DNA of 64,000 nucleotides from Nitrososphaerota archaeon (GTDB taxonomy: Archaea > Thermoproteota > Nitrososphaeria > Nitrososphaerales > Nitrosopumilaceae), in assembly GCA_028867755.1 (NCBI GenBank), contig JAGWFT010000001.1:708727-772726 (forward strand), in the 5' to 3' direction. Numbering within the stretch: position 1 is the first letter of the stretch; each line of letters starts with the position of its first letter. A program made the position numbers and the translations under genes. The notes beneath the pieces are model-generated. The model did no database searches. It had not been told where the DNA came from and was given only the letters and a program-made list of their open reading frames with translations. This document shows positions 26,141 to 38,757 of this stretch, piece after piece.

Positions 26141-26215
26141 GGACCCGTAGCACAGCTTGGATAGTGCGGTCGCTTGCGGAGCGACAGGTCGTGGGTTCGA
26201 GTCCCCCCGGGCCCG
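26141..26215 (+). tRNA. tRNA-Arg(GCG)
   Basis: Cloverleaf: D stem GCAC/GTGC, anticodon stem GTCGC/GCGAC, loop TTGCGGA, TTCGA T-loop; two mismatches in the acceptor and T stems. Confidence 0.92.
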
Positions 26216-28802: not shown

Positions 28803-29053
28803 ACTATGATTCCTCTTGATCCTGTTATGTCATCGTCTCTAATAAAGCGGCGTAATACATCATTTACAGCTACAAAAGAGTATACCTGAAGCACTATCTG
28901 GAATCGTCACTAAATTCTATTGACATAGAACTCTTCTTTTTTGTTAAAATTTGATAGATCTATGAAAATAGTGTGCAATCCTACCGTTCTTATTGCTTGA
29001 CAGCTAGACAATATATGATAAACTGAATGCTTTCTCTTGATTCTGACTCGTAT

Positions 29054-30022
29054 ATGAAATGTGCTCGCTGTGGAAAGAGCGCCATGGTAACAGATGGTTC
29101 TACAGGAGAGAGATTTTGTGGAGTATGTGGGTTTGTTATCAATGAACGAATTGAAGATTCTGGCCCTGAGAGACGTTCATTCTCAAAAGAAGAACATGAG
29201 GACAGGTCAAGAACAGGCGTGCCATCGTCTCTTGCGATGCATGATATGGGACTTGCAACCGTGATAGGACACGATAACAAAGATGCAACTGGAAAGCCGC
29301 TTTCAATATCAATGAAGAGCACTATAACACGTCTCAGAACATGGGATAGTAGAAGCCAAGTTCACGAGTCTCAAGAGAGAAACCTTAGGCAGGCATTCAG
29401 CGAGCTTAGCAGAATGAAAGACAAACTTGCACTATCTGATTCTGTGGTTGAAAAGACTGCATACATTTACAGAAAAGCATTAGAAAAAAATCTCACAAGA
29501 GGCAGATCAATTCCTGGATTGATTGCTGCAGCAATGTATTTGGCATGTAGAGATACTGGTACCCCGAGGACATTAAATGAGGTAGCACACCAAATCAACA
29601 TAAAAAGAAAAGATGTGTCTAGATGTTACCGATTACTCCTAAAAGAACTCGATTTGAAAATGCCGGTGTTAGATCCCATAAAATGTATGTCACGAATATC
29701 AAGTCAGGCGCGTCTAAGTGAAAAAGTAAAACGACAAGCTCTTAAGATTTTAGAAGATGCAAACAAGCTGGAAATTACTGCAGGAAAAGATCCTATGGGA
29801 ATGGCAGCAGCAGCATTGTATCTTTCATGTGCAATAAACAAGGAAGGTACAACACAAAAAGTCATCGCTTTAGCAGCCGGAGTTACAGAAGTTACAATAA
29901 GAAACAGATGTAAAGGATTACGAGAATTACTAGACATAAAAATTCCAGACAAATTGAATCTAAGGCTGGGTTATACTGAAAAATCTACAAACTCGGTGAT
30001 TCAAGTTATGACGCCCGAATAA
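29054..30022 (+). CDS. tfb: Transcription initiation factor IIB (TFB paralogue)
   Basis: CARC...CGVCG zinc ribbon, GPE.R.F, RLRTWD, ERNL, two cyclin repeats, VTEVTIRNR. Confidence 0.96.
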   Translation: MKCARCGKSAMVTDGSTGERFCGVCGFVINERIEDSGPERRSFSKEEHEDRSRTGVPSSLAMHDMGLATVIGHDNKDATGKPLSISMKSTITRLRTWDSRSQVHESQERNLRQAFSELSRMKDKLALSDSVVEKTAYIYRKALEKNLTRGRSIPGLIAAAMYLACRDTGTPRTLNEVAHQINIKRKDVSRCYRLLLKELDLKMPVLDPIKCMSRISSQARLSEKVKRQALKILEDANKLEITAGKDPMGMAAAALYLSCAINKEGTTQKVIALAAGVTEVTIRNRCKGLRELLDIKIPDKLNLRLGYTEKSTNSVIQVMTPE

Positions 30023-31996: not shown

Positions 31997-32581
31997 TCAT
32001 CCTAGTAACATTCCTCTGCGATAGATCCTACCTTTGCAAGATTCAGATATGGATCCAATTTGACCTTCTATATGGATAACACCTCCTGACATGTAAGTGC
32101 CAACATGACCGCCTGCACTACCTTGTATTGTAATCTCACCTCCTGACATGTTATATCCGACGTAATATCCGGCACTACCTTGTATTGTAATCTCGCCTTC
32201 TGACATACGTTCCCCAACATAATCCCCTACGTTACCTTGAAATGCAATTTTACCCTGTTTGAGTCTATAACCAATGCAATCAACAGGGCAACCTAGATTG
32301 GGAAAGTCGAGCGTTACTATGTCATTCTTTTTTATTATCTTGTTTATTGCTGCTGAGATGAAGAGACCAGCAGTCCAGTAGTTTGCCTTGTCTGAGAAGG
32401 ACTCTCTGTTTATCAAGCCTGCAAAAATTGACACATCGTTGAGGGTGAGGCCAAGTCTTTCAATCTTTGACGACGCGGATTTGTAAGACTCTTCAGAAGT
32501 TAAACTGTTGGCATCAACAATGTATTCTCTGAAGATTTTGGCAATGGCGTATGTTATGTCGTTTGAGTTTTCTCTGGCCAC
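31997..32581 (-). CDS. Protein with C-terminal GXGXG beta-helix (FwdC/GltB C-domain-like) repeats
   Basis: GNVGDYVGERMSEG / GSAGYYVGYNMSGG / GSAGGHVGTYMSGG 19-aa repeats. Confidence 0.8.
   Translation of the reverse strand: MARENSNDITYAIAKIFREYIVDANSLTSEESYKSASSKIERLGLTLNDVSIFAGLINRESFSDKANYWTAGLFISAAINKIIKKNDIVTLDFPNLGCPVDCIGYRLKQGKIAFQGNVGDYVGERMSEGEITIQGSAGYYVGYNMSGGEITIQGSAGGHVGTYMSGGVIHIEGQIGSISESCKGRIYRRGMLLG
32081..32206. repeat. 57-bp tandem repeat (about 2.5 copies) within the GXGXG gene
   Basis: gcactaccttgtattgtaatctc at 32115 and 32172; acctcctgacatgt at 32081 and 32138. Confidence 0.85.
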
Positions 32582-33220: not shown

Positions 33221-33511
33221 CTACTGCCAAGTTATCTTTAGGAATACCAGGGAGCCAGCAAGCTGTACTATGCGAACAATCAGAACAAACGGCAAGAGTG
33301 CAGCCTGATACAAGTCAAACATGACGAAGTATGTGTATACATTGATTGCATTATCTAAAAAGAGCATTGCAACAAAAAAGATCATTCCAAGGTGAACCTG
33401 TGATTTTGTTTTTGAATGCATCTTTACAAAGGTAGCAATTAGAACGCTGAATACTCCCATGTTTGCCATTGCAACAATGGCACAGTATGGAATAATTGTG
33501 ATCAAACTCAT
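33221..33511 (-). CDS. Small 3-TM membrane protein downstream of tandem wHTH regulators
   Basis: Three hydrophobic segments; 12 nt from the upstream gene. Confidence 0.75.
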   Translation of the reverse strand: MSLITIIPYCAIVAMANMGVFSVLIATFVKMHSKTKSQVHLGMIFFVAMLFLDNAINVYTYFVMFDLYQAALLPFVLIVRIVQLAGSLVFLKITWQ

Positions 33512-33523
33512 TCACCCTGTAAT

Positions 33524-33892
33524 TTACTTGTCTCTGTACAAGTTTGCAGCAAGCTCATCAAAGATAGCAATGTTTACCTCAAGAAAAGTGGAAAGAAAAT
33601 AGGTTGTACCATACTTTTCACCCACGTGTGACACTAGGTTATTTTTTTCGAGAACTCCAATGTGATGCTGTATTGCCCTATAGTTTAGTTCAAGCTCTTT
33701 TGCAAGTTGGTGTGCATTGAGCGGTGACTTTTTCAATGCAAGAACCATTCTTATTCGGTTCTGACCTCCTCGAGAATTTGCAAATACCATCCATAGTAAA
33801 TTCTTTGCATAGGGTAACTCTGTGTCCTTTTGGTTCGAATCTTCTACAGTTCTATGATTGTGATATGATGATACAGTATCAAATGTGCGCAT
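33524..33892 (-). CDS. ArsR-like winged helix-turn-helix regulator (copy 1)
   Basis: SRGG.NR, NA.QLA..L.LNYRAIQHH..VLEKNNL. ATG 33892 lies 23 nt below a TATA-like box. Confidence 0.88.
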   Translation of the reverse strand: MRTFDTVSSYHNHRTVEDSNQKDTELPYAKNLLWMVFANSRGGQNRIRMVLALKKSPLNAHQLAKELELNYRAIQHHIGVLEKNNLVSHVGEKYGTTYFLSTFLEVNIAIFDELAANLYRDK

Positions 33893-33914
33893 AGTGGCAT
33901 CTTTACGTGATAAC

Positions 33915-33946
33915 ATAAATACATTTTTCAAGATTGAGTGCAAATT
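33915..33946 (-). promoter_or_regulatory. TATA-like box plus shared upstream motif (copy for wHTH1)
   Basis: Minus strand aatttgcactcaatcttgaaaaat-gtatttat; 19/24 identical to the copy at 35740. Confidence 0.6.
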
Positions 33947-34252
33947 CTATTCCTTGGCTCCATAGGCTTTCGACACGATTTCATTATATGCTTCTATATT
34001 GGCTTCAAAAAAGGTAGAAGGGAAATAGGTTGTACCATATTTCTCACCGACTTTTGTAATGAGGTTATTTTTTTCTAGTACCTCGAGATGATGCTGTATT
34101 GCCCTATAGTTTAATCCTAAATCATTTGCCAACTGGTTGGCATTGCGTGGAGACTTTTGTAATGCAATCATGATCTTGACTCTATTTTCTCCGCCTCTTG
34201 AGCTGGCAAAGATAAAAAAGAGAAGATTTTTTGCATATGGCAAGCTCGGCAT
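33947..34252 (-). CDS. ArsR-like winged helix-turn-helix regulator (copy 2)
   Basis: 59/83 identical residues to copy 1 by manual alignment; identical LNYRAIQHH helix. Confidence 0.9.
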   Translation of the reverse strand: MPSLPYAKNLLFFIFASSRGGENRVKIMIALQKSPRNANQLANDLGLNYRAIQHHLEVLEKNNLITKVGEKYGTTYFPSTFFEANIEAYNEIVSKAYGAKE

Positions 34253-34337
34253 TTGAACGATTAAACGTCAACGTAATGCGGTTAAAGATGTTATGAGCAA
34301 GTGACCAAATCTTGTATTAAAAAAAGAAAAGGAAGGG

Positions 34338-35708
34338 TTAGGAAACGACTATGGTTCCACGCATCTGTGAATGGATCATACATGCATAATCGTATGTTCC
34401 AGGCTTGTTGAAAGTAAACGTGAATGTCTTTCCTGGTTTGAGGAATCCACTATCAAAGGTTCCATCCGCACTGGTAGTTCCTGGCTTGACTGATGTTACA
34501 GTATGTGTGGCACCATCGGTGTTCACAAAAGTTACAGTTGTTCCTGCCTTGATGTTAAGCACATCTGGCGTGAAGAATGGTGATTCCAAGCCATTGATGT
34601 ATACTGTGTTTGGTGGTGGATTGGCATTTGTGTCAGTTGTGGATGATAACGCACTTCCAGTTGGTTCTGAGACAAACACGTTAAAGTCTGTGTATGCCGC
34701 TCCCCACATGTAGTTTGAGAGAGCGCTTGGTTGAAGTTTAACATCCATAACATATGGCCCTGAACTTGGAAAAATCTCAGTCAATGACTCTACACCAGTG
34801 TGACCATGGACTGCTCCATTCATAGCAAGTGCTCCTTCGACTGGTGCAGATTGTGCTACAATGTAACCTCCAGTTGATGCAGTAACTTGCAGGTCAGGAT
34901 GTATAATCATGGAATGATCCTGAGCTTTTGTCACAGTAAAGACAAAAGTTACAGGCTGTCCTGCGACAATTTTGTTCGAGGTCGTGCTAAACTCTAAATT
35001 GACTGCAGTTCCTGGAATTGTTCCATTGAGTGTATGTGTCTGGTCTATGTTTTGCACATAAACTGGAAACTCAAACTCTCTTGCTCCAAAATTATTTTGT
35101 GGATCCTTGGCAAAGTCCTTTGGACTTCCAGATAGCATTGTATGAGTCCATCCTTTAGGAGTTGGTTCCAATCCGCCCATTGTAGTTCCAATTGATGATA
35201 CAGTCAGGTATACAGTACTTTCACCTGCTGTTGGAAAAGCTACACTAAAGCCCATGTTTCCAACGTGGGAATGTCCAGTTGTTGTTTTGTAGACAAGGTT
35301 TCCATTTGGATCTTTTACTGCTATTGCCCAATCAACATGGCTAAGCTTTGCTCCAGAGACTGAGTCTTTTACATGCATCTGGATTGAGGCTAGGTTATTT
35401 GTTTGAATCATTGGGGTCGCAGTAAAGTCTACTGTGACATTGTCAGATGTCTTTGATAGCGGCGTATTCTGTGTATCGCTGTCCTTCATTTCATTTGACT
35501 GGCCAGAGCTCATCGAATCTTGCCCATACATCATTGCTGTCATATCATGATGTGGTGCGGTCATCGAATTGTTGTCTGCAGTCATTGCACTGGCTTGCCC
35601 TAGATCTTGCATCTTGTTGTCATGCGACATAAGGTCAAGCGGTACAATCATTGCAAGTACAGCAACAGTTGCTATAACTATTGTTGTAATAGCTAAGTTT
35701 GTTTGCAT
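34338..35708 (-). CDS. Secreted multidomain protein with C-terminal plastocyanin/azurin type-1 copper domain
   Basis: Signal/anchor, Met/His-rich linker, two beta domains with GHSH/HGH, then HTVT...YACMIHSQMRG (His-Cys-His-Met). Confidence 0.88.
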   Translation of the reverse strand: MQTNLAITTIVIATVAVLAMIVPLDLMSHDNKMQDLGQASAMTADNNSMTAPHHDMTAMMYGQDSMSSGQSNEMKDSDTQNTPLSKTSDNVTVDFTATPMIQTNNLASIQMHVKDSVSGAKLSHVDWAIAVKDPNGNLVYKTTTGHSHVGNMGFSVAFPTAGESTVYLTVSSIGTTMGGLEPTPKGWTHTMLSGSPKDFAKDPQNNFGAREFEFPVYVQNIDQTHTLNGTIPGTAVNLEFSTTSNKIVAGQPVTFVFTVTKAQDHSMIIHPDLQVTASTGGYIVAQSAPVEGALAMNGAVHGHTGVESLTEIFPSSGPYVMDVKLQPSALSNYMWGAAYTDFNVFVSEPTGSALSSTTDTNANPPPNTVYINGLESPFFTPDVLNIKAGTTVTFVNTDGATHTVTSVKPGTTSADGTFDSGFLKPGKTFTFTFNKPGTYDYACMIHSQMRGTIVVS

Positions 35709-35730
35709 GACATGGTTCTGCTTATAAAAT

Positions 35731-35773
35731 TATATAGCAATATTTCAAAATCAAGTGTAAATTATATGCAAAT
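35731..35773 (-). promoter_or_regulatory. TATA box plus shared upstream motif (copy for the 456-aa cupredoxin)
   Basis: 43-nt block with 38/43 identity to 36493-36535. Confidence 0.75.
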
Positions 35774-35933
35774 CTCTAGAATTGTTTTATGGTCGGGAAA
35801 GTAGTCAATTATTTGATGCTAGATATGAACAAAGTTATGCAGATTATTGATAGACCTTATTGTATAAAAAATTAAAAAAAATAACATGATGCTATTGCCA
35901 GCGTGATCTGCTGATTATATTGCGGCATCATAC

Positions 35934-36464
35934 TTAGTTGATTCTCGGAAGGACCACTATCTCGCCACGCATGTTTGGCTCGTGCATTGAACACCAAAAG
36001 TCGATTGTTCCAACATTGTCTGCTGTAAAGGTAATGGTTTTCATCTCTCCTCTATGAATGTCAAACTGGGGAGCAATTCCGTCTACAGTTATCATATGTT
36101 CTGGTCCCTGGACATCTACAAAGTTGAGAGTAACTTGGTCGCCTTGGTTTACAACAATTACTGAAGGTGCAAACATGTACTGCCTTACCTTCCATCCTCC
36201 CATACTATCTATTTTTTTTATTACCAAGCCGCCTCCAGAGGGAAGGGTTGAGTTTGGATATGGCTCTGACGGGTGATCGGAGGCTGGATAAATGCTGGTT
36301 ATACCATCTAGGTGGACTGTTGCTATGTAGAATGTCTTTTGTGACGCGGCAGAAGCCGTATTGGTTTGTCCGAACATTTGTCCTTCAAGAGAAACCGTGG
36401 CAATGACTCCAGCTATTGCAGCTATTGTCAGGCCAAGAATTACACTCTTGTTTAGATTTTTCAT
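35934..36464 (-). CDS. Membrane-anchored cupredoxin-domain protein
   Basis: N-terminal TM; PSVIVVNQGD.V.L, EHMITV, FWCSMHEPNMRG (type-1 Cu ligands). Confidence 0.88.
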   Translation of the reverse strand: MKNLNKSVILGLTIAAIAGVIATVSLEGQMFGQTNTASAASQKTFYIATVHLDGITSIYPASDHPSEPYPNSTLPSGGGLVIKKIDSMGGWKVRQYMFAPSVIVVNQGDQVTLNFVDVQGPEHMITVDGIAPQFDIHRGEMKTITFTADNVGTIDFWCSMHEPNMRGEIVVLPRIN

Positions 36465-36492
36465 ATAGTCAAAAAGTAATTTATTAGAAAGC

Positions 36493-36607
36493 TATTTAGT
36501 AATATTTCAAAATGATGTGTAAATTACATGCAAATTACCTTTTTATCACTAGTTGACAATGTTAGTTCAACAGTAATTTGCATGTAATTTTGAAAAATCT
36601 CTTTATG
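36493..36607. promoter_or_regulatory. Divergent promoter pair with perfect 18-bp inverted repeat
   Basis: aaattacatgcaaattac (36521-36538) and gtaatttgcatgtaattt (36573-36590), each leading into TTTTGAAAWAT and a TATA-like box. Confidence 0.75.
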
Positions 36608-36628
36608 TTATTATGATATTAGAATCTC

Positions 36629-36677
36629 GGTTCGATTCATTTAACATGTTCTCAACCCCGTACGATTGAATCGAACC
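36629..36677 (+). ncRNA. Candidate small structured RNA or leader (11-bp stem)
   Basis: ggttcgattca (36629-36639) / tgaatcgaacc (36667-36677), beginning about 23 nt below a TATA-like box at 36600-36607. Confidence 0.3.
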
Positions 36678-36749
36678 AACTAAAATTTTCAAAAATTCGA
36701 AATAAAACTATTATTTGTTTCCAGTAATATGTCGCATCATGCAGTTGTG

Positions 36750-36793
36750 ATTTGTATAAAATTTGTATGTGAATTCGAAATATCGCTAAATAA
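36750..36793 (+). promoter_or_regulatory. Shared upstream motif plus TATA-like box (copy for the EGIDGIP-repeat gene)
   Basis: 31/44 gapless identity to the reverse complement of 36492-36535; box ends 24 nt before ATG 36816. Confidence 0.65.
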
Positions 36794-36815
36794 TAAATTT
36801 TTAATCTTGCTGTCA

Positions 36816-37475
36816 ATGACTAAAAAAATACTATTGGGAATTGCTATGGCAGCAATTGTGTTGGCCTTGGGGATAGGAACACAAAACTTTGCTCTAGCAA
36901 TGACAGACAATGCACAAGGTGGTGTTGCTAAAAATGTATCATCTCCAACATTTGTATCATCCACTGATTCCATGATGTTAGTGGCAACTTCGCCCACTGC
37001 TAAAGGCGGTAAGGCTACTTTCGCATTGGTACCAAGACCTGCTGAAGGGATAGATGGAATACCAGTTCCAAAACAAGCTGCACCTGATATGATACTGGTT
37101 GCAACATCAAATGGTAGACATATCAGTTATACGTTAGTACCAAGACCCATTGAAGGGATAGATGGAATACCACTTCCAAAACTAATTCAGCAGAACTCAG
37201 AGACTACAGTATCCTCTCCCAAATCTACTGATCCAAGTCCTATGATGCTTGTGGCAATTTCTCCTACTAAAAAGGGAGGAAGTACTACCTTCATGTTAGT
37301 GCCAAAGCCAGTCGAGAATGTAGATGGAATACCAATGCAAAAACAGACAAGTCCTGACATGATACTGGTTGCACAGCCATCGCCCAATGGCGGTAAGCCT
37401 ATCTTCACATGGATACCAAAACCTGTTGAAGGTATAGACGGTATACCACTCACAAAATCGCCTCCAAATAGCTGA
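36816..37475 (+). CDS. Secreted protein with four (M/I)LVA...LVP(R/K)PxEGIDGIP repeats
   Basis: Signal peptide MTKKILLGIAMAAIVLALGIGTQNFALA; repeat cores at 37044, 37152, 37314, 37428. Confidence 0.85.
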   Translation: MTKKILLGIAMAAIVLALGIGTQNFALAMTDNAQGGVAKNVSSPTFVSSTDSMMLVATSPTAKGGKATFALVPRPAEGIDGIPVPKQAAPDMILVATSNGRHISYTLVPRPIEGIDGIPLPKLIQQNSETTVSSPKSTDPSPMMLVAISPTKKGGSTTFMLVPKPVENVDGIPMQKQTSPDMILVAQPSPNGGKPIFTWIPKPVEGIDGIPLTKSPPNS

Positions 37476-37505
37476 TCTCCTTCAGTGTAAAACCAGTGGA
37501 AAAAA

Positions 37506-37537
37506 TAAAACACGAAAGATCAATCTCTCGTGTTTTA
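37506..37537 (+). terminator. Stem-loop downstream of the repeat gene
   Basis: taaaacacga / tcgtgtttta 10-bp inverted repeat. Confidence 0.45.
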
Positions 37538-37701: not shown

Positions 37702-38757
37702 ATGACAGATCTTTATCGTGTACTGCCAGAGGAGGTAGACAAGCTTGTAACAAGTATGGAGCAGCCGCGTTATCGAGCAGATCAGCTACTCCACATGCTG
37801 TACAATGAGTTTCCAAAGGACATATCTTCAATGCGCCAGCTTCCCGCAGAGATGAGAAATGCACTATCTACGGCAGGATACACAATTGGGTCTGCAGACG
37901 AAGTTCACCGTGTTGTAAGCGAGGATGGGCAGACAACAAAGCTTCTTCTCAAGCTAGGTGACGGAACTCTTATCGAGACAGTACTCATGCAATATCGCAA
38001 GAATAAGGGGCGTCCAAGATCAACTGTATGCGTCTCAACCCAGGTTGGCTGCCAGATGGGTTGCACATTCTGCGCTACCGGGCAGATGGGTTTTGAGCGA
38101 AATCTCAAGGCAGAAGAGATAGTCGCCCAAGTATTGCACTTTGCTTCTGTTCTCAGAGAACGGGGAGAGCATGTCACCAACCTTGTCTTTATGGGGATGG
38201 GGGAGCCCCTGGCAAATTATACAGAAACTATCAGGGCAGTCAAACTACTGACAAATGCACGTGCGTTTGGTCTTGGACAAAGACACATTACAATTTCAAC
38301 AGTCGGTGTCATGAAAGAAATAGATCGGCTTGCAGACGAAGACCTGCAGATAGGACTTGCAATCTCTCTTCATGCACCAAACGACGAGCTGCGTAGAAAA
38401 TTAGTACCAACTGCAGGACCGCATTCGGTAGGAGACTTGATCTCAGCTACGCGAAGCTATTTCAAGAAGACAGGTCGTCGTGTTACATTGGAATATGCCC
38501 TGATAAACGGTGTTAACGACTCACCAGAGATTGCAGCAGAACTTGCGACACTCTTGAAGGGAAATGGGGCTCATGTTAATCTCATACCGGTGAATCCAAC
38601 TGCTGGTGGTTTTCAACGTCCAAGATGGAAACGCATAACAGAATTCGAGCGAATACTAAGGGAATCTGATGTGAATTGTACTGTAAGGGTGGAAAAAGGG
38701 TCAGAGATCTCTGCCGCCTGCGGTCAACTAAGGACAGACACAGCAAAGAATCTCTAG
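37702..38757 (+). CDS. rlmN: RlmN/Cfr-family radical SAM RNA methyltransferase
   Basis: IETV, CVSTQVGC.MGC.FCATG, FMGMGEP, ISLHA, EY.LI.GVND, ISAACGQL. Confidence 0.93.
   Translation: MTDLYRVLPEEVDKLVTSMEQPRYRADQLLHMLYNEFPKDISSMRQLPAEMRNALSTAGYTIGSADEVHRVVSEDGQTTKLLLKLGDGTLIETVLMQYRKNKGRPRSTVCVSTQVGCQMGCTFCATGQMGFERNLKAEEIVAQVLHFASVLRERGEHVTNLVFMGMGEPLANYTETIRAVKLLTNARAFGLGQRHITISTVGVMKEIDRLADEDLQIGLAISLHAPNDELRRKLVPTAGPHSVGDLISATRSYFKKTGRRVTLEYALINGVNDSPEIAAELATLLKGNGAHVNLIPVNPTAGGFQRPRWKRITEFERILRESDVNCTVRVEKGSEISAACGQLRTDTAKNL

Follow-up and report, generated by a model that had tools for sequence, protein, structure and literature searches.

A 64,000-nucleotide stretch of contig JAGWFT010000001.1 (assembly GCA_028867755.1), referred to below as the window, contains six genes within 4.3 kb (33221-37537) which probably constitute an accessory, self-contained and autoregulated cassette of Candidatus Nitrosotalea whose proteins handle copper outside the cytoplasm. 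Five of the genes lie on the minus strand and encode a small membrane protein, two ArsR-type winged helix-turn-helix (wHTH) proteins, wHTH2 and wHTH1, a multidomain cupredoxin of 456 residues (cup456) and a small cupredoxin of 176 residues (cup176). The sixth is divergent, on the plus strand, and encodes a secreted protein with four repeats, referred to as the repeat protein. The names on homologues identify the host, an acid-soil archaeon with a genome of 1.64 Mb, as a Candidatus Nitrosotalea species, and the earlier guess of an ammonia-oxidising archaeon was correct. The positions of the features are collected in Table 1.

Table 1. Features of the cassette and their positions in the window
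Feature	Position	Strand	Evidence or remark
96-residue membrane protein, about three hydrophobic segments	33221..33511	-	Open reading frame; starts after a 12-nucleotide gap behind wHTH2
wHTH2, ArsR-type winged helix, 122 residues	33524..33892	-	Pfam HTH_5, 31.2 bits (cut-off 22)
Promoter of the wHTH2 and membrane-protein operon, single-unit, 'B-type'	33910..33946	-	Nearly invariant block in six genomes
wHTH1, ArsR-type winged helix, 101 residues	33947..34252	-	Pfam HTH_5, 39.5 bits (cut-off 22)
cup456, 456 residues	34338..35708	-	Pfam, AlphaFold model, fold searches, alignment of 40 homologues
cup456 promoter, two-unit, 'A-type'	35722..35773	-	Repeat finding, motif search, intergenic alignment
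cup176, exported or anchored small cupredoxin, 176 residues	35934..36464	-	Pfam Cupredoxin_1, 36.3 bits (cut-off 27)
cup176 promoter, two-unit	36484..36535	-	Distal operator unit 36521-36535; 85% identical to the cup456 promoter
PX promoter, single-unit, divergent from the cup176 promoter	36576..36612	+	Repeat finding, intergenic alignment
Conserved hairpin, candidate small RNA	36629..36692	+	Stem-loop 36629-36677, then a short T-run
Repeat-gene proximal promoter, two-unit, degenerate in the window's own genome (ATTTGTATAAAATTT)	36750..36800	+	Alignment
Secreted four-repeat protein, 219 residues	36816..37475	+	Repeat finding, homologue alignment, cluster searches
Hairpin resembling a terminator, then TTTT, behind the repeat gene	37506..37537	+	Repeat finding; folding z -3.63

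The six genes form one conserved unit which is placed in different chromosomal contexts across species. The comparison used a genus sample of 61 species genomes, including the window's own (G000), and the gene neighbourhoods of cassettes and repeat-protein homologues were read in species-representative genomes only. Protein queries found the order membrane protein, wHTH2, wHTH1, cup456, cup176 in nine of the 61: G000, G151, G187, G188, G184, G121 and G177, in the last of which it is split over two contigs, plus G182 and G181, where it is cut off by contig ends. A DNA search of the genus matched the whole 4.2 kb cassette in G151 at 77% identity between other flanks. Between genomes the homology stops abruptly at the cassette edges and the flanks vary among lineages, being held in common only by the close pair G151 and G187. 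The two closest relatives of the window's genome, G163 and G171, are unpublished genomes and all statements that use them rest on unpublished data; there, about 2 kb containing other genes separates the alcohol dehydrogenase and RlmN genes which flank the cassette in the window.

The repeat gene was found in seven of the 61 genus genomes and in none of 141 sampled genomes from other genera of the family. It stands divergent beside cup176 in all five genomes with a readable neighbourhood, the copies in G176 and G177 lying at contig ends; the possibility that the original prediction had raised against itself, that the repeat protein never co-occurs with the cupredoxin and wHTH genes, therefore fails. 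All six genes which that prediction listed are present, the His-Cys-His-Met ligands that it assigned to both cupredoxins are retained, and the synteny comparison which it proposed gave, within Nitrosotalea, an identical gene order in every genome where the order can be read. The cassette of G121 (L022:7329-10800) has no repeat gene, and in its cup176 the His and Cys ligands are replaced by Tyr and Ser; for these reasons it is read as a decaying copy. Despite the missing repeat gene, it keeps the PX promoter, hairpin and T-run described below intact. A mobile-element origin of the cassette was considered and rejected for want of supporting evidence: no integrase or transposase was seen by eye among the open reading frames between a tRNA-Arg gene (26141-26215) and the cassette, and no tRNA gene was present in the fetched flanks of the other cassettes.

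The promoters of the cassette share an operator that is essentially confined to it. The motif ATTTGCAYNYAATYT exceeds chance by far, with four sites in the whole genome, all within the locus, compared with a chance expectation of about 0.4 sites per genome (our estimate from base composition) and none for the reversed control. Three exact copies and one variant are present in the window, and a fifth, degenerate copy precedes the repeat gene. Repeat finding recovered a 52-nucleotide block shared by the upstream regions of cup456 and cup176 and a related 37-nucleotide block upstream of wHTH2 and, inverted, at 36575-36611. The architecture is one or two 11-bp units (ATTTGYAYnnn), followed by TTGAAAWAT and a TATA box, with two phased units at the three structural-gene promoters and one unit at the wHTH2 promoter and at PX. 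At wHTH2 the operator unit (33931-33945) is followed by TGAAAAAT, the TATA box TTTATGTTAT and 17 nucleotides to the ATG, a leaderless-like arrangement, and at cup456 the two 11-bp-phased units (the distal one at 35759-35773) are followed by TTGAAATAT and a TATA box. The PX and cup176 operators form a perfect 18-bp inverted pair. The longest open reading frame for wHTH2 (33524-33943) would give 139 residues; since the conserved promoter falls within it, the Met at 33892 is the most likely start.

Footprinting with intergenic alignments of five and then six genomes showed the operator-TATA blocks to be nearly invariant at five promoters, with diverging surroundings. A relaxed 16-nucleotide pattern had four of its five sites within the cassette in each of G151, G187 and G188, two of four in G121 and the only one in G184, and its reversed control had none. 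The position which corresponds to the degenerate repeat-gene promoter has a clear operator in G177 and G188. No motif unit was found in the region upstream of wHTH1 (34253-34337), which is unconserved except for a T-run after cup456. The original proposal that a shared motif makes the genes one regulon holds as far as a cassette-specific, conserved cis element at five promoters is concerned and does not hold for wHTH1, which has no copy.

In architecture PX matches the wHTH2 promoter and, in six genomes, a hairpin begins 17-18 unconserved nucleotides past its TATA box, where at wHTH2 the ATG follows after 17. The hairpin has a stem of 11-12 bp, in which GGTTCGATTCA pairs with TGAATCGAACC, and a loop of 23-36 nucleotides which varies in length and sequence but keeps a C-rich patch; a short T-run follows in most genomes. 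The folding z-score of the stem is -4.29. On this comparison the hairpin is an inverted repeat under constraint, placed where transcription is predicted to start; it could be a small RNA in its own right or form the 5' stem-loop of a long repeat-gene leader. The possible small RNA of the original prediction thereby gains a conserved promoter directed at a conserved hairpin, with weak covariation and no known family to set against this: Rfam 15 gave no match for the hairpin, and the only match in the window was tRNA-Arg.

The copper link is strengthened by cup456. The AlphaFold model of this protein (predicted local distance difference test, pLDDT, 72.7 overall and 80-95 in the folded parts) and its alignment indicate a membrane anchor (residues 1-29), a Met/His-rich linker (25-85, with 9 Met and 3 His) which is disordered in the model, two beta-sandwich domains (approximately 85-220 and 222-350) and an amicyanin-like type-1 cupredoxin domain (365-456). 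The type-1 ligands H402, C443, H446 and M449 are invariant in 40 homologues, as are an HxD and an HxH motif in both beta-sandwich domains, formed by H124/D126 and H146/H148 in domain 1 and by H270/D272 and H301/H303 in domain 2. Pfam Copper-bind and Cupredoxin_1 both score above threshold. The closest solved structure to residues 368-456 is the purple cupredoxin of N. maritimus, 5fc9 (Z 14.3, root-mean-square deviation (rmsd) 1.7 A, 31% identity). Among all PDB representatives domain 2 (218-346) matched H. pylori CrdA, 9ll2_A, with Z 12.0 and an rmsd of 2.2 A over 103 of 108 residues, in excess of its generic Ig-like matches (Z 9-10); it also matched the copper/iron proteins P19, Tp34 and HftA with Z of about 9. 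Domain 1 matched PmoD, 6cpd_B, with Z 8.8, which is within the generic Ig-like background, generic macroglobulin domains reaching Z 9.9. Foldseek with the whole model returned only generic multi-domain Ig-like matches and cupredoxins, the family profile matched PDB sequences in the cupredoxin part only, and the similarity between domains 1 and 2 was not significant (BLASTP E 0.083).

Seven of 40 members of the cup456 family match Pfam YtkA (PF13115; best E 6.2e-7), a domain implicated in extracytoplasmic copper delivery in Bacillus (PMC13344008), and among the families listed for the 40 members there was no match to the CopC Pfam family at E values up to 1. CrdA is a CopC-family copper-binding protein, and CopC-type copper ligands are either an N-terminal His with Asp-x-His or a Met-rich MxxMPGM loop (PMC9182242). 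Neither the canonical ligands nor the Met-rich loop is evident in domain 2, and since both the profile and the canonical ligands are wanting, domain 2 is likened to the CopC fold and not classed as a member. None of the solved structures searched showed two beta-sandwich domains fused to a type-1 cupredoxin. In a sample of 300 genomes of the class the cup456 family was present in 30, which belong to nine of 67 genera and to three families.

A second recurrent arrangement at cup456-like genes consists of two small membrane proteins (about 92-110 residues) and a different wHTH protein of 117 residues; it was seen in G058, a Nitrosotalea (L003:9834-12271), and in the Nitrososphaera-like G334 (L027:5978-8516).

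The ligands of cup176 are H123, C158, H161 and M165, which are conserved in its orthologues except that of G121. The orthologues are 82-91% identical in most cassettes and 68% in G177. The best NCBIfam score was to nitrosocyanin (E 1e-7) but stayed under the cut-off of that family. T-runs lie behind the stop codon of the gene. Because cup456, cup176 and the repeat protein each have an N-terminal hydrophobic segment, all three are read as extracytoplasmic.

The regulators are paralogues, wHTH1 and wHTH2 being 60-64% identical, and the closest solved relative of both is the Pyrococcus regulator Phr. The wHTH2 orthologues are 59-78% identical in the cassettes compared over the full gene length, and the 96-residue membrane protein is 84-90% identical in the other cassettes. 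The latter had no match in local copies of Pfam or NCBIfam; an Atlas feature score of 0.97, a score which comes without alignment or E-value, links it to three clusters (21 of 30 matches) of DUF8036 (PF26119), an uncharacterised family of Nitrososphaerota. The same two kinds of gene occur together outside the cassette. A core wHTH protein, about 60% identical to both cassette regulators, is present in 55 of the 61 genus genomes and is followed by a paralogue of the membrane protein wherever the locus was read (G000 and G094); DNA matches across both genes suggest this arrangement in several more genomes. In the window's own genome (L004:3142-6703, C24:10141-13702) the core pair is divergent beside copA, which encodes an 807-residue P1B-type ATPase with a CxxC metal-binding domain, and next to this is a gene for a 139-residue Lrp-type helix-turn-helix protein with a TRASH-like Cys motif, giving a copA/copR-like locus. 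The promoters of the core pair have no operator like that of the cassette.

The wHTH family also accompanies cup456-like genes in other genera. In the Nitrososphaera-like G334 a wHTH gene of this family, a cup176-like gene and a cup456-like gene adjoin, and the promoter of the cup456-like gene has 11-bp-phased ATTTGTA units before its TATA box. In G265, of genus g13 in the family of the window's genome, a wHTH gene is directly upstream of a cup456-like gene. From this adjacency in G334 and G265 the regulator-target pair is taken to be older than the Nitrosotalea cassette. Two further pairs of wHTH and DUF8036-like genes were seen 20-60 kb from the cassette of G188, in a metal-resistance-like island (G188:C261:30000-69999; L033, L034) with genes for a heavy-metal ATPase, a CopZ-like protein, HxlR regulators, a MerA-like oxidoreductase and thioredoxin.

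The repeat protein, on the searches made, belongs to an orphan family whose members have two or four repeats, with 24 clusters among 5.8 billion proteins and 13 profile matches among 1.84 billion representatives. Most homologues share the start MTKK at 36816, which is therefore preferred to 36729. An N-terminal hydrophobic segment was read by eye as a signal peptide and each repeat consists of a beta-hairpin and PxEGIDGIP. The structural model is poor (pLDDT 52.8), showing only one beta-hairpin per repeat, and there was no look-alike in the Atlas (best score 0.77).

The surroundings of the cassette also provided some observations. An RlmN/Cfr-like radical S-adenosylmethionine gene (37702-38757) flanks it and has a guanine plus cytosine fraction of 0.46-0.49, above that of its surroundings; it is placed outside the cassette because it is on another contig in G151 and beside the alcohol dehydrogenase gene in G163 and G171. 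Three genes occupy the space between the cassette and the alcohol dehydrogenase gene; they encode a 194-residue protein (31997-32581) with a GXGXG-motif domain like that of the glutamate synthase domain family, a 166-residue protein and a universal stress protein, and all three are located elsewhere in the genome in the nearest relatives (G163). Outside the window, the 508-bp contig C5 of the same assembly (L007:1-508) has the last part of a wHTH1-like gene, the first part of a wHTH2-like gene and a single-unit operator and promoter at 117-131, in DNA about 69% identical to the window copy. It is either a piece of a second, diverged cassette or from a co-assembled strain.

Several known systems can be compared with the cassette. 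Under copper limitation N. viennensis shows a response of an ArsR protein (NVIE_014280, log2 fold change +2.5), a plastocyanin and a protein with a C-terminal blue-copper domain (NVIE_024190, log2 fold change +4.1), and altered expression of cell-surface proteins that share a promoter motif; the copper-limitation genes have a common promoter motif at -35 to -70 (Reyes et al. 2020, PMC7785015). In both those clusters and the cassette an ArsR-family regulator occurs together with a plastocyanin-like protein and with exported proteins whose function is unknown, both include a protein that has a C-terminal type-1 copper domain and no known function, cup456 and NVIE_024190 being likened by description only, and in both a shared motif lies approximately 35-70 nucleotides upstream of the start codons. 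However, the motifs differ, being TTCSGSMTTTGWACYANT in N. viennensis and 11-bp ATTTGYAY units in the cassette. The N. viennensis clusters include CopC/D, DsbD and multicopper oxidases which the cassette does not have, whereas the twin wHTH genes, the DUF8036-like partner, the repeat protein and the hairpin are found only in the cassette. The copper response was measured in N. viennensis and is only inferred for the cassette.

The cassette regulators are like the ArsR/SmtB metalloregulators in their small size, HTH_5 winged-helix fold, recognition-helix region and metal-related neighbouring genes. Metal sensors of that family have Cys pairs in alpha3/alpha3N or an Asp/His/Glu site in alpha5, but the cassette proteins have no Cys and neither an alpha3N nor an alpha5 site. 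In addition, ArsR/SmtB proteins use a palindrome over the promoter whereas the cassette operator consists of phased direct repeats upstream of the TATA box, and the cassette regulators come as two conserved paralogues whose genes accompany that of a small membrane protein. As with CopC, PcoC, CrdA and YtkA (CtaK and the C-terminal domain of YcnJ), cup456 presents an extracytoplasmic beta-sandwich after a Met/His-rich segment, but domain 2 is only 14% identical in sequence to CrdA and has HxD and HxH instead of canonical CopC ligands. Its C-terminal domain has the fold of amicyanin, plastocyanin and 5fc9. The ligand spacing in amicyanin is Cys-x2-His-x2-Met, and cup456 has the same spacing. Amicyanin and plastocyanin are free carriers whereas the cupredoxin of cup456 is the last domain of an anchored multidomain protein.

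A working scheme for the copper-handling cassette would be as follows. The two ArsR-type paralogues may bind the 11-bp units, perhaps as a heterodimer or as a phased array. As the units are upstream of the TATA box they are slightly more likely to activate than to repress, the balance between the two being nearly even. The wHTH2 gene and that of its DUF8036-like partner are themselves under the operator and therefore feedback would arise, while wHTH1 would be expressed independently of the operator. Given that the regulators have no metal ligands, the signal is probably relayed by the membrane partner. The product cup456, in which two His-site domains like those of CopC, CrdA and YtkA are joined to an amicyanin-like type-1 copper centre, would bind copper outside the cell and alter or buffer its redox state. 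In this scheme cup176 may be its small electron partner and the repeat protein a secreted accessory, and the hairpin RNA from PX may add a post-transcriptional layer. The extracellular copper system of the original prediction is partly supported, with a firmer link to copper, from the CrdA-like domain 2 and the invariant His clusters, although the core electron-transfer role which it had also allowed is unlikely because the cassette is present in so few species of the genus. Since the cassette is optional and has relatives in metal islands, copper buffering or resistance in acid soils is favoured over core electron transfer.

A number of results weigh against this reading. The fold matches were obtained with a predicted model of the whole 456-residue protein, and cup456 of the window has no YtkA match at E values up to 1 and no significant match to the CopC Pfam family. 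The two wHTH proteins score 31.9 and 28.7 bits with the NCBIfam model HTH_metalloreg (NF033788), below its cut-off of 55; there is no Cys in wHTH1, wHTH2 or the core paralogue, and inspection of the sequences by eye found no conserved His/Asp/Glu cluster outside the recognition helix that would make an ArsR-type metal site. Adjacency to copA as a general rule for the core pair was rejected, as it was seen in only four of about 55 genomes (G000, G189, G163 and G171). For the hairpin, the covariation was not significant, one compensatory pair and one G-U pair being reached by 73 of 500 shuffles. The repeat protein of the window's own genome has no fold, family or obvious metal site, and none of the genomes attributable to cultured Nitrosotalea has the full cassette.

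The absence of metal ligands from the regulators would also suit an accessory electron-transfer branch, in which the cupredoxins shuttle electrons with an alternative extracellular donor or acceptor, for example in the detoxification of nitric oxide or reactive oxygen, and the regulators sense the redox or energy state. Blue copper proteins are thought to serve as electron carriers in ammonia-oxidising archaea (PMC7785015), the type-1 sites of both cupredoxins are complete, and the best matches, 5fc9 for the cupredoxin of cup456 and, below the cut-off, nitrosocyanin for cup176, fit such a role. However, presence in nine of 61 species genomes makes the cassette dispensable for ammonia oxidation, it encodes no oxidoreductase partner, and the extra domains of cup456 resemble copper-binding chaperone folds with invariant His clusters rather than substrate-oxidising domains, so that we regard this branch as unlikely. 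Less credible still, and in our judgement improbable, is a cassette for remodelling the envelope or surface, with the repeat protein as the main product, the cupredoxin-fold proteins in a structural or adhesive role and envelope stress sensed via the small membrane protein. That the three structural products are all exported or anchored is consistent with this, as are the likeness of the beta-sandwich domains to generic Ig-like or macroglobulin domains and the change in N. viennensis surface proteins under copper limitation; but the copper ligands are invariant in 40 homologues, G121 has lost the repeat gene yet retains the rest, and the repeat protein has no anchor, S-layer-like features or modelled fold.

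The shared operator itself may be explained in another way, as a promoter class which arose by duplication and is read by a dedicated general factor, such as a paralogue of transcription factor B (TFB), the wHTH genes being passengers or regulating something else. The conserved block does include a TATA box and TTGAAAWAT, which is like a B recognition element, and in four genomes a TFB paralogue is encoded at a distance of 0.7-3.3 kb from the cassette (window 29027-30022; L002:5001-5954). These TFBs are only 48% identical, though, and hence are different paralogues. Moreover, the ATTTGYAY units, which come singly or as two copies in 11-bp phase, show a conservation separate from that of the TATA region, the wHTH genes are never separate from the cassette, and the wHTH family accompanies cup456-like genes in two other genera. 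We therefore give this explanation only a slim chance. The copper-handling cassette can also be drawn more sharply, as an undescribed signalling design in which a DUF8036-type protein senses extracytoplasmic copper or a related stress and controls an ArsR-like heterodimer activating phased arrays, together with a regulated 5'-hairpin small RNA and a repeat protein that is the copper-binding or chaperone partner of the CopC-like/cupredoxin fusion. As a joint claim this is doubtful. If it were true, the same logic of a wHTH protein and a membrane protein would explain the core pair in nearly all Nitrosotalea.

Ammonia-oxidising archaea drive nitrification in acid soils, and their copper homeostasis and transcription control are largely uncharted despite their heavy reliance on copper enzymes. 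The cassette is a compact test case in which 4.3 kb hold an operator that is defined, two regulators and a membrane sensor that are candidates for these roles, and the genes of three exported products, and the absence of the operator elsewhere in the genome should make binding and reporter experiments easy to interpret. The cup456 family, in which copper-chaperone-like domains are fused to a blue copper centre, appears not to have been examined before. If cup456 reduces, oxidises or buffers extracellular copper, it would be a new element for models of archaeal copper acquisition or resistance.

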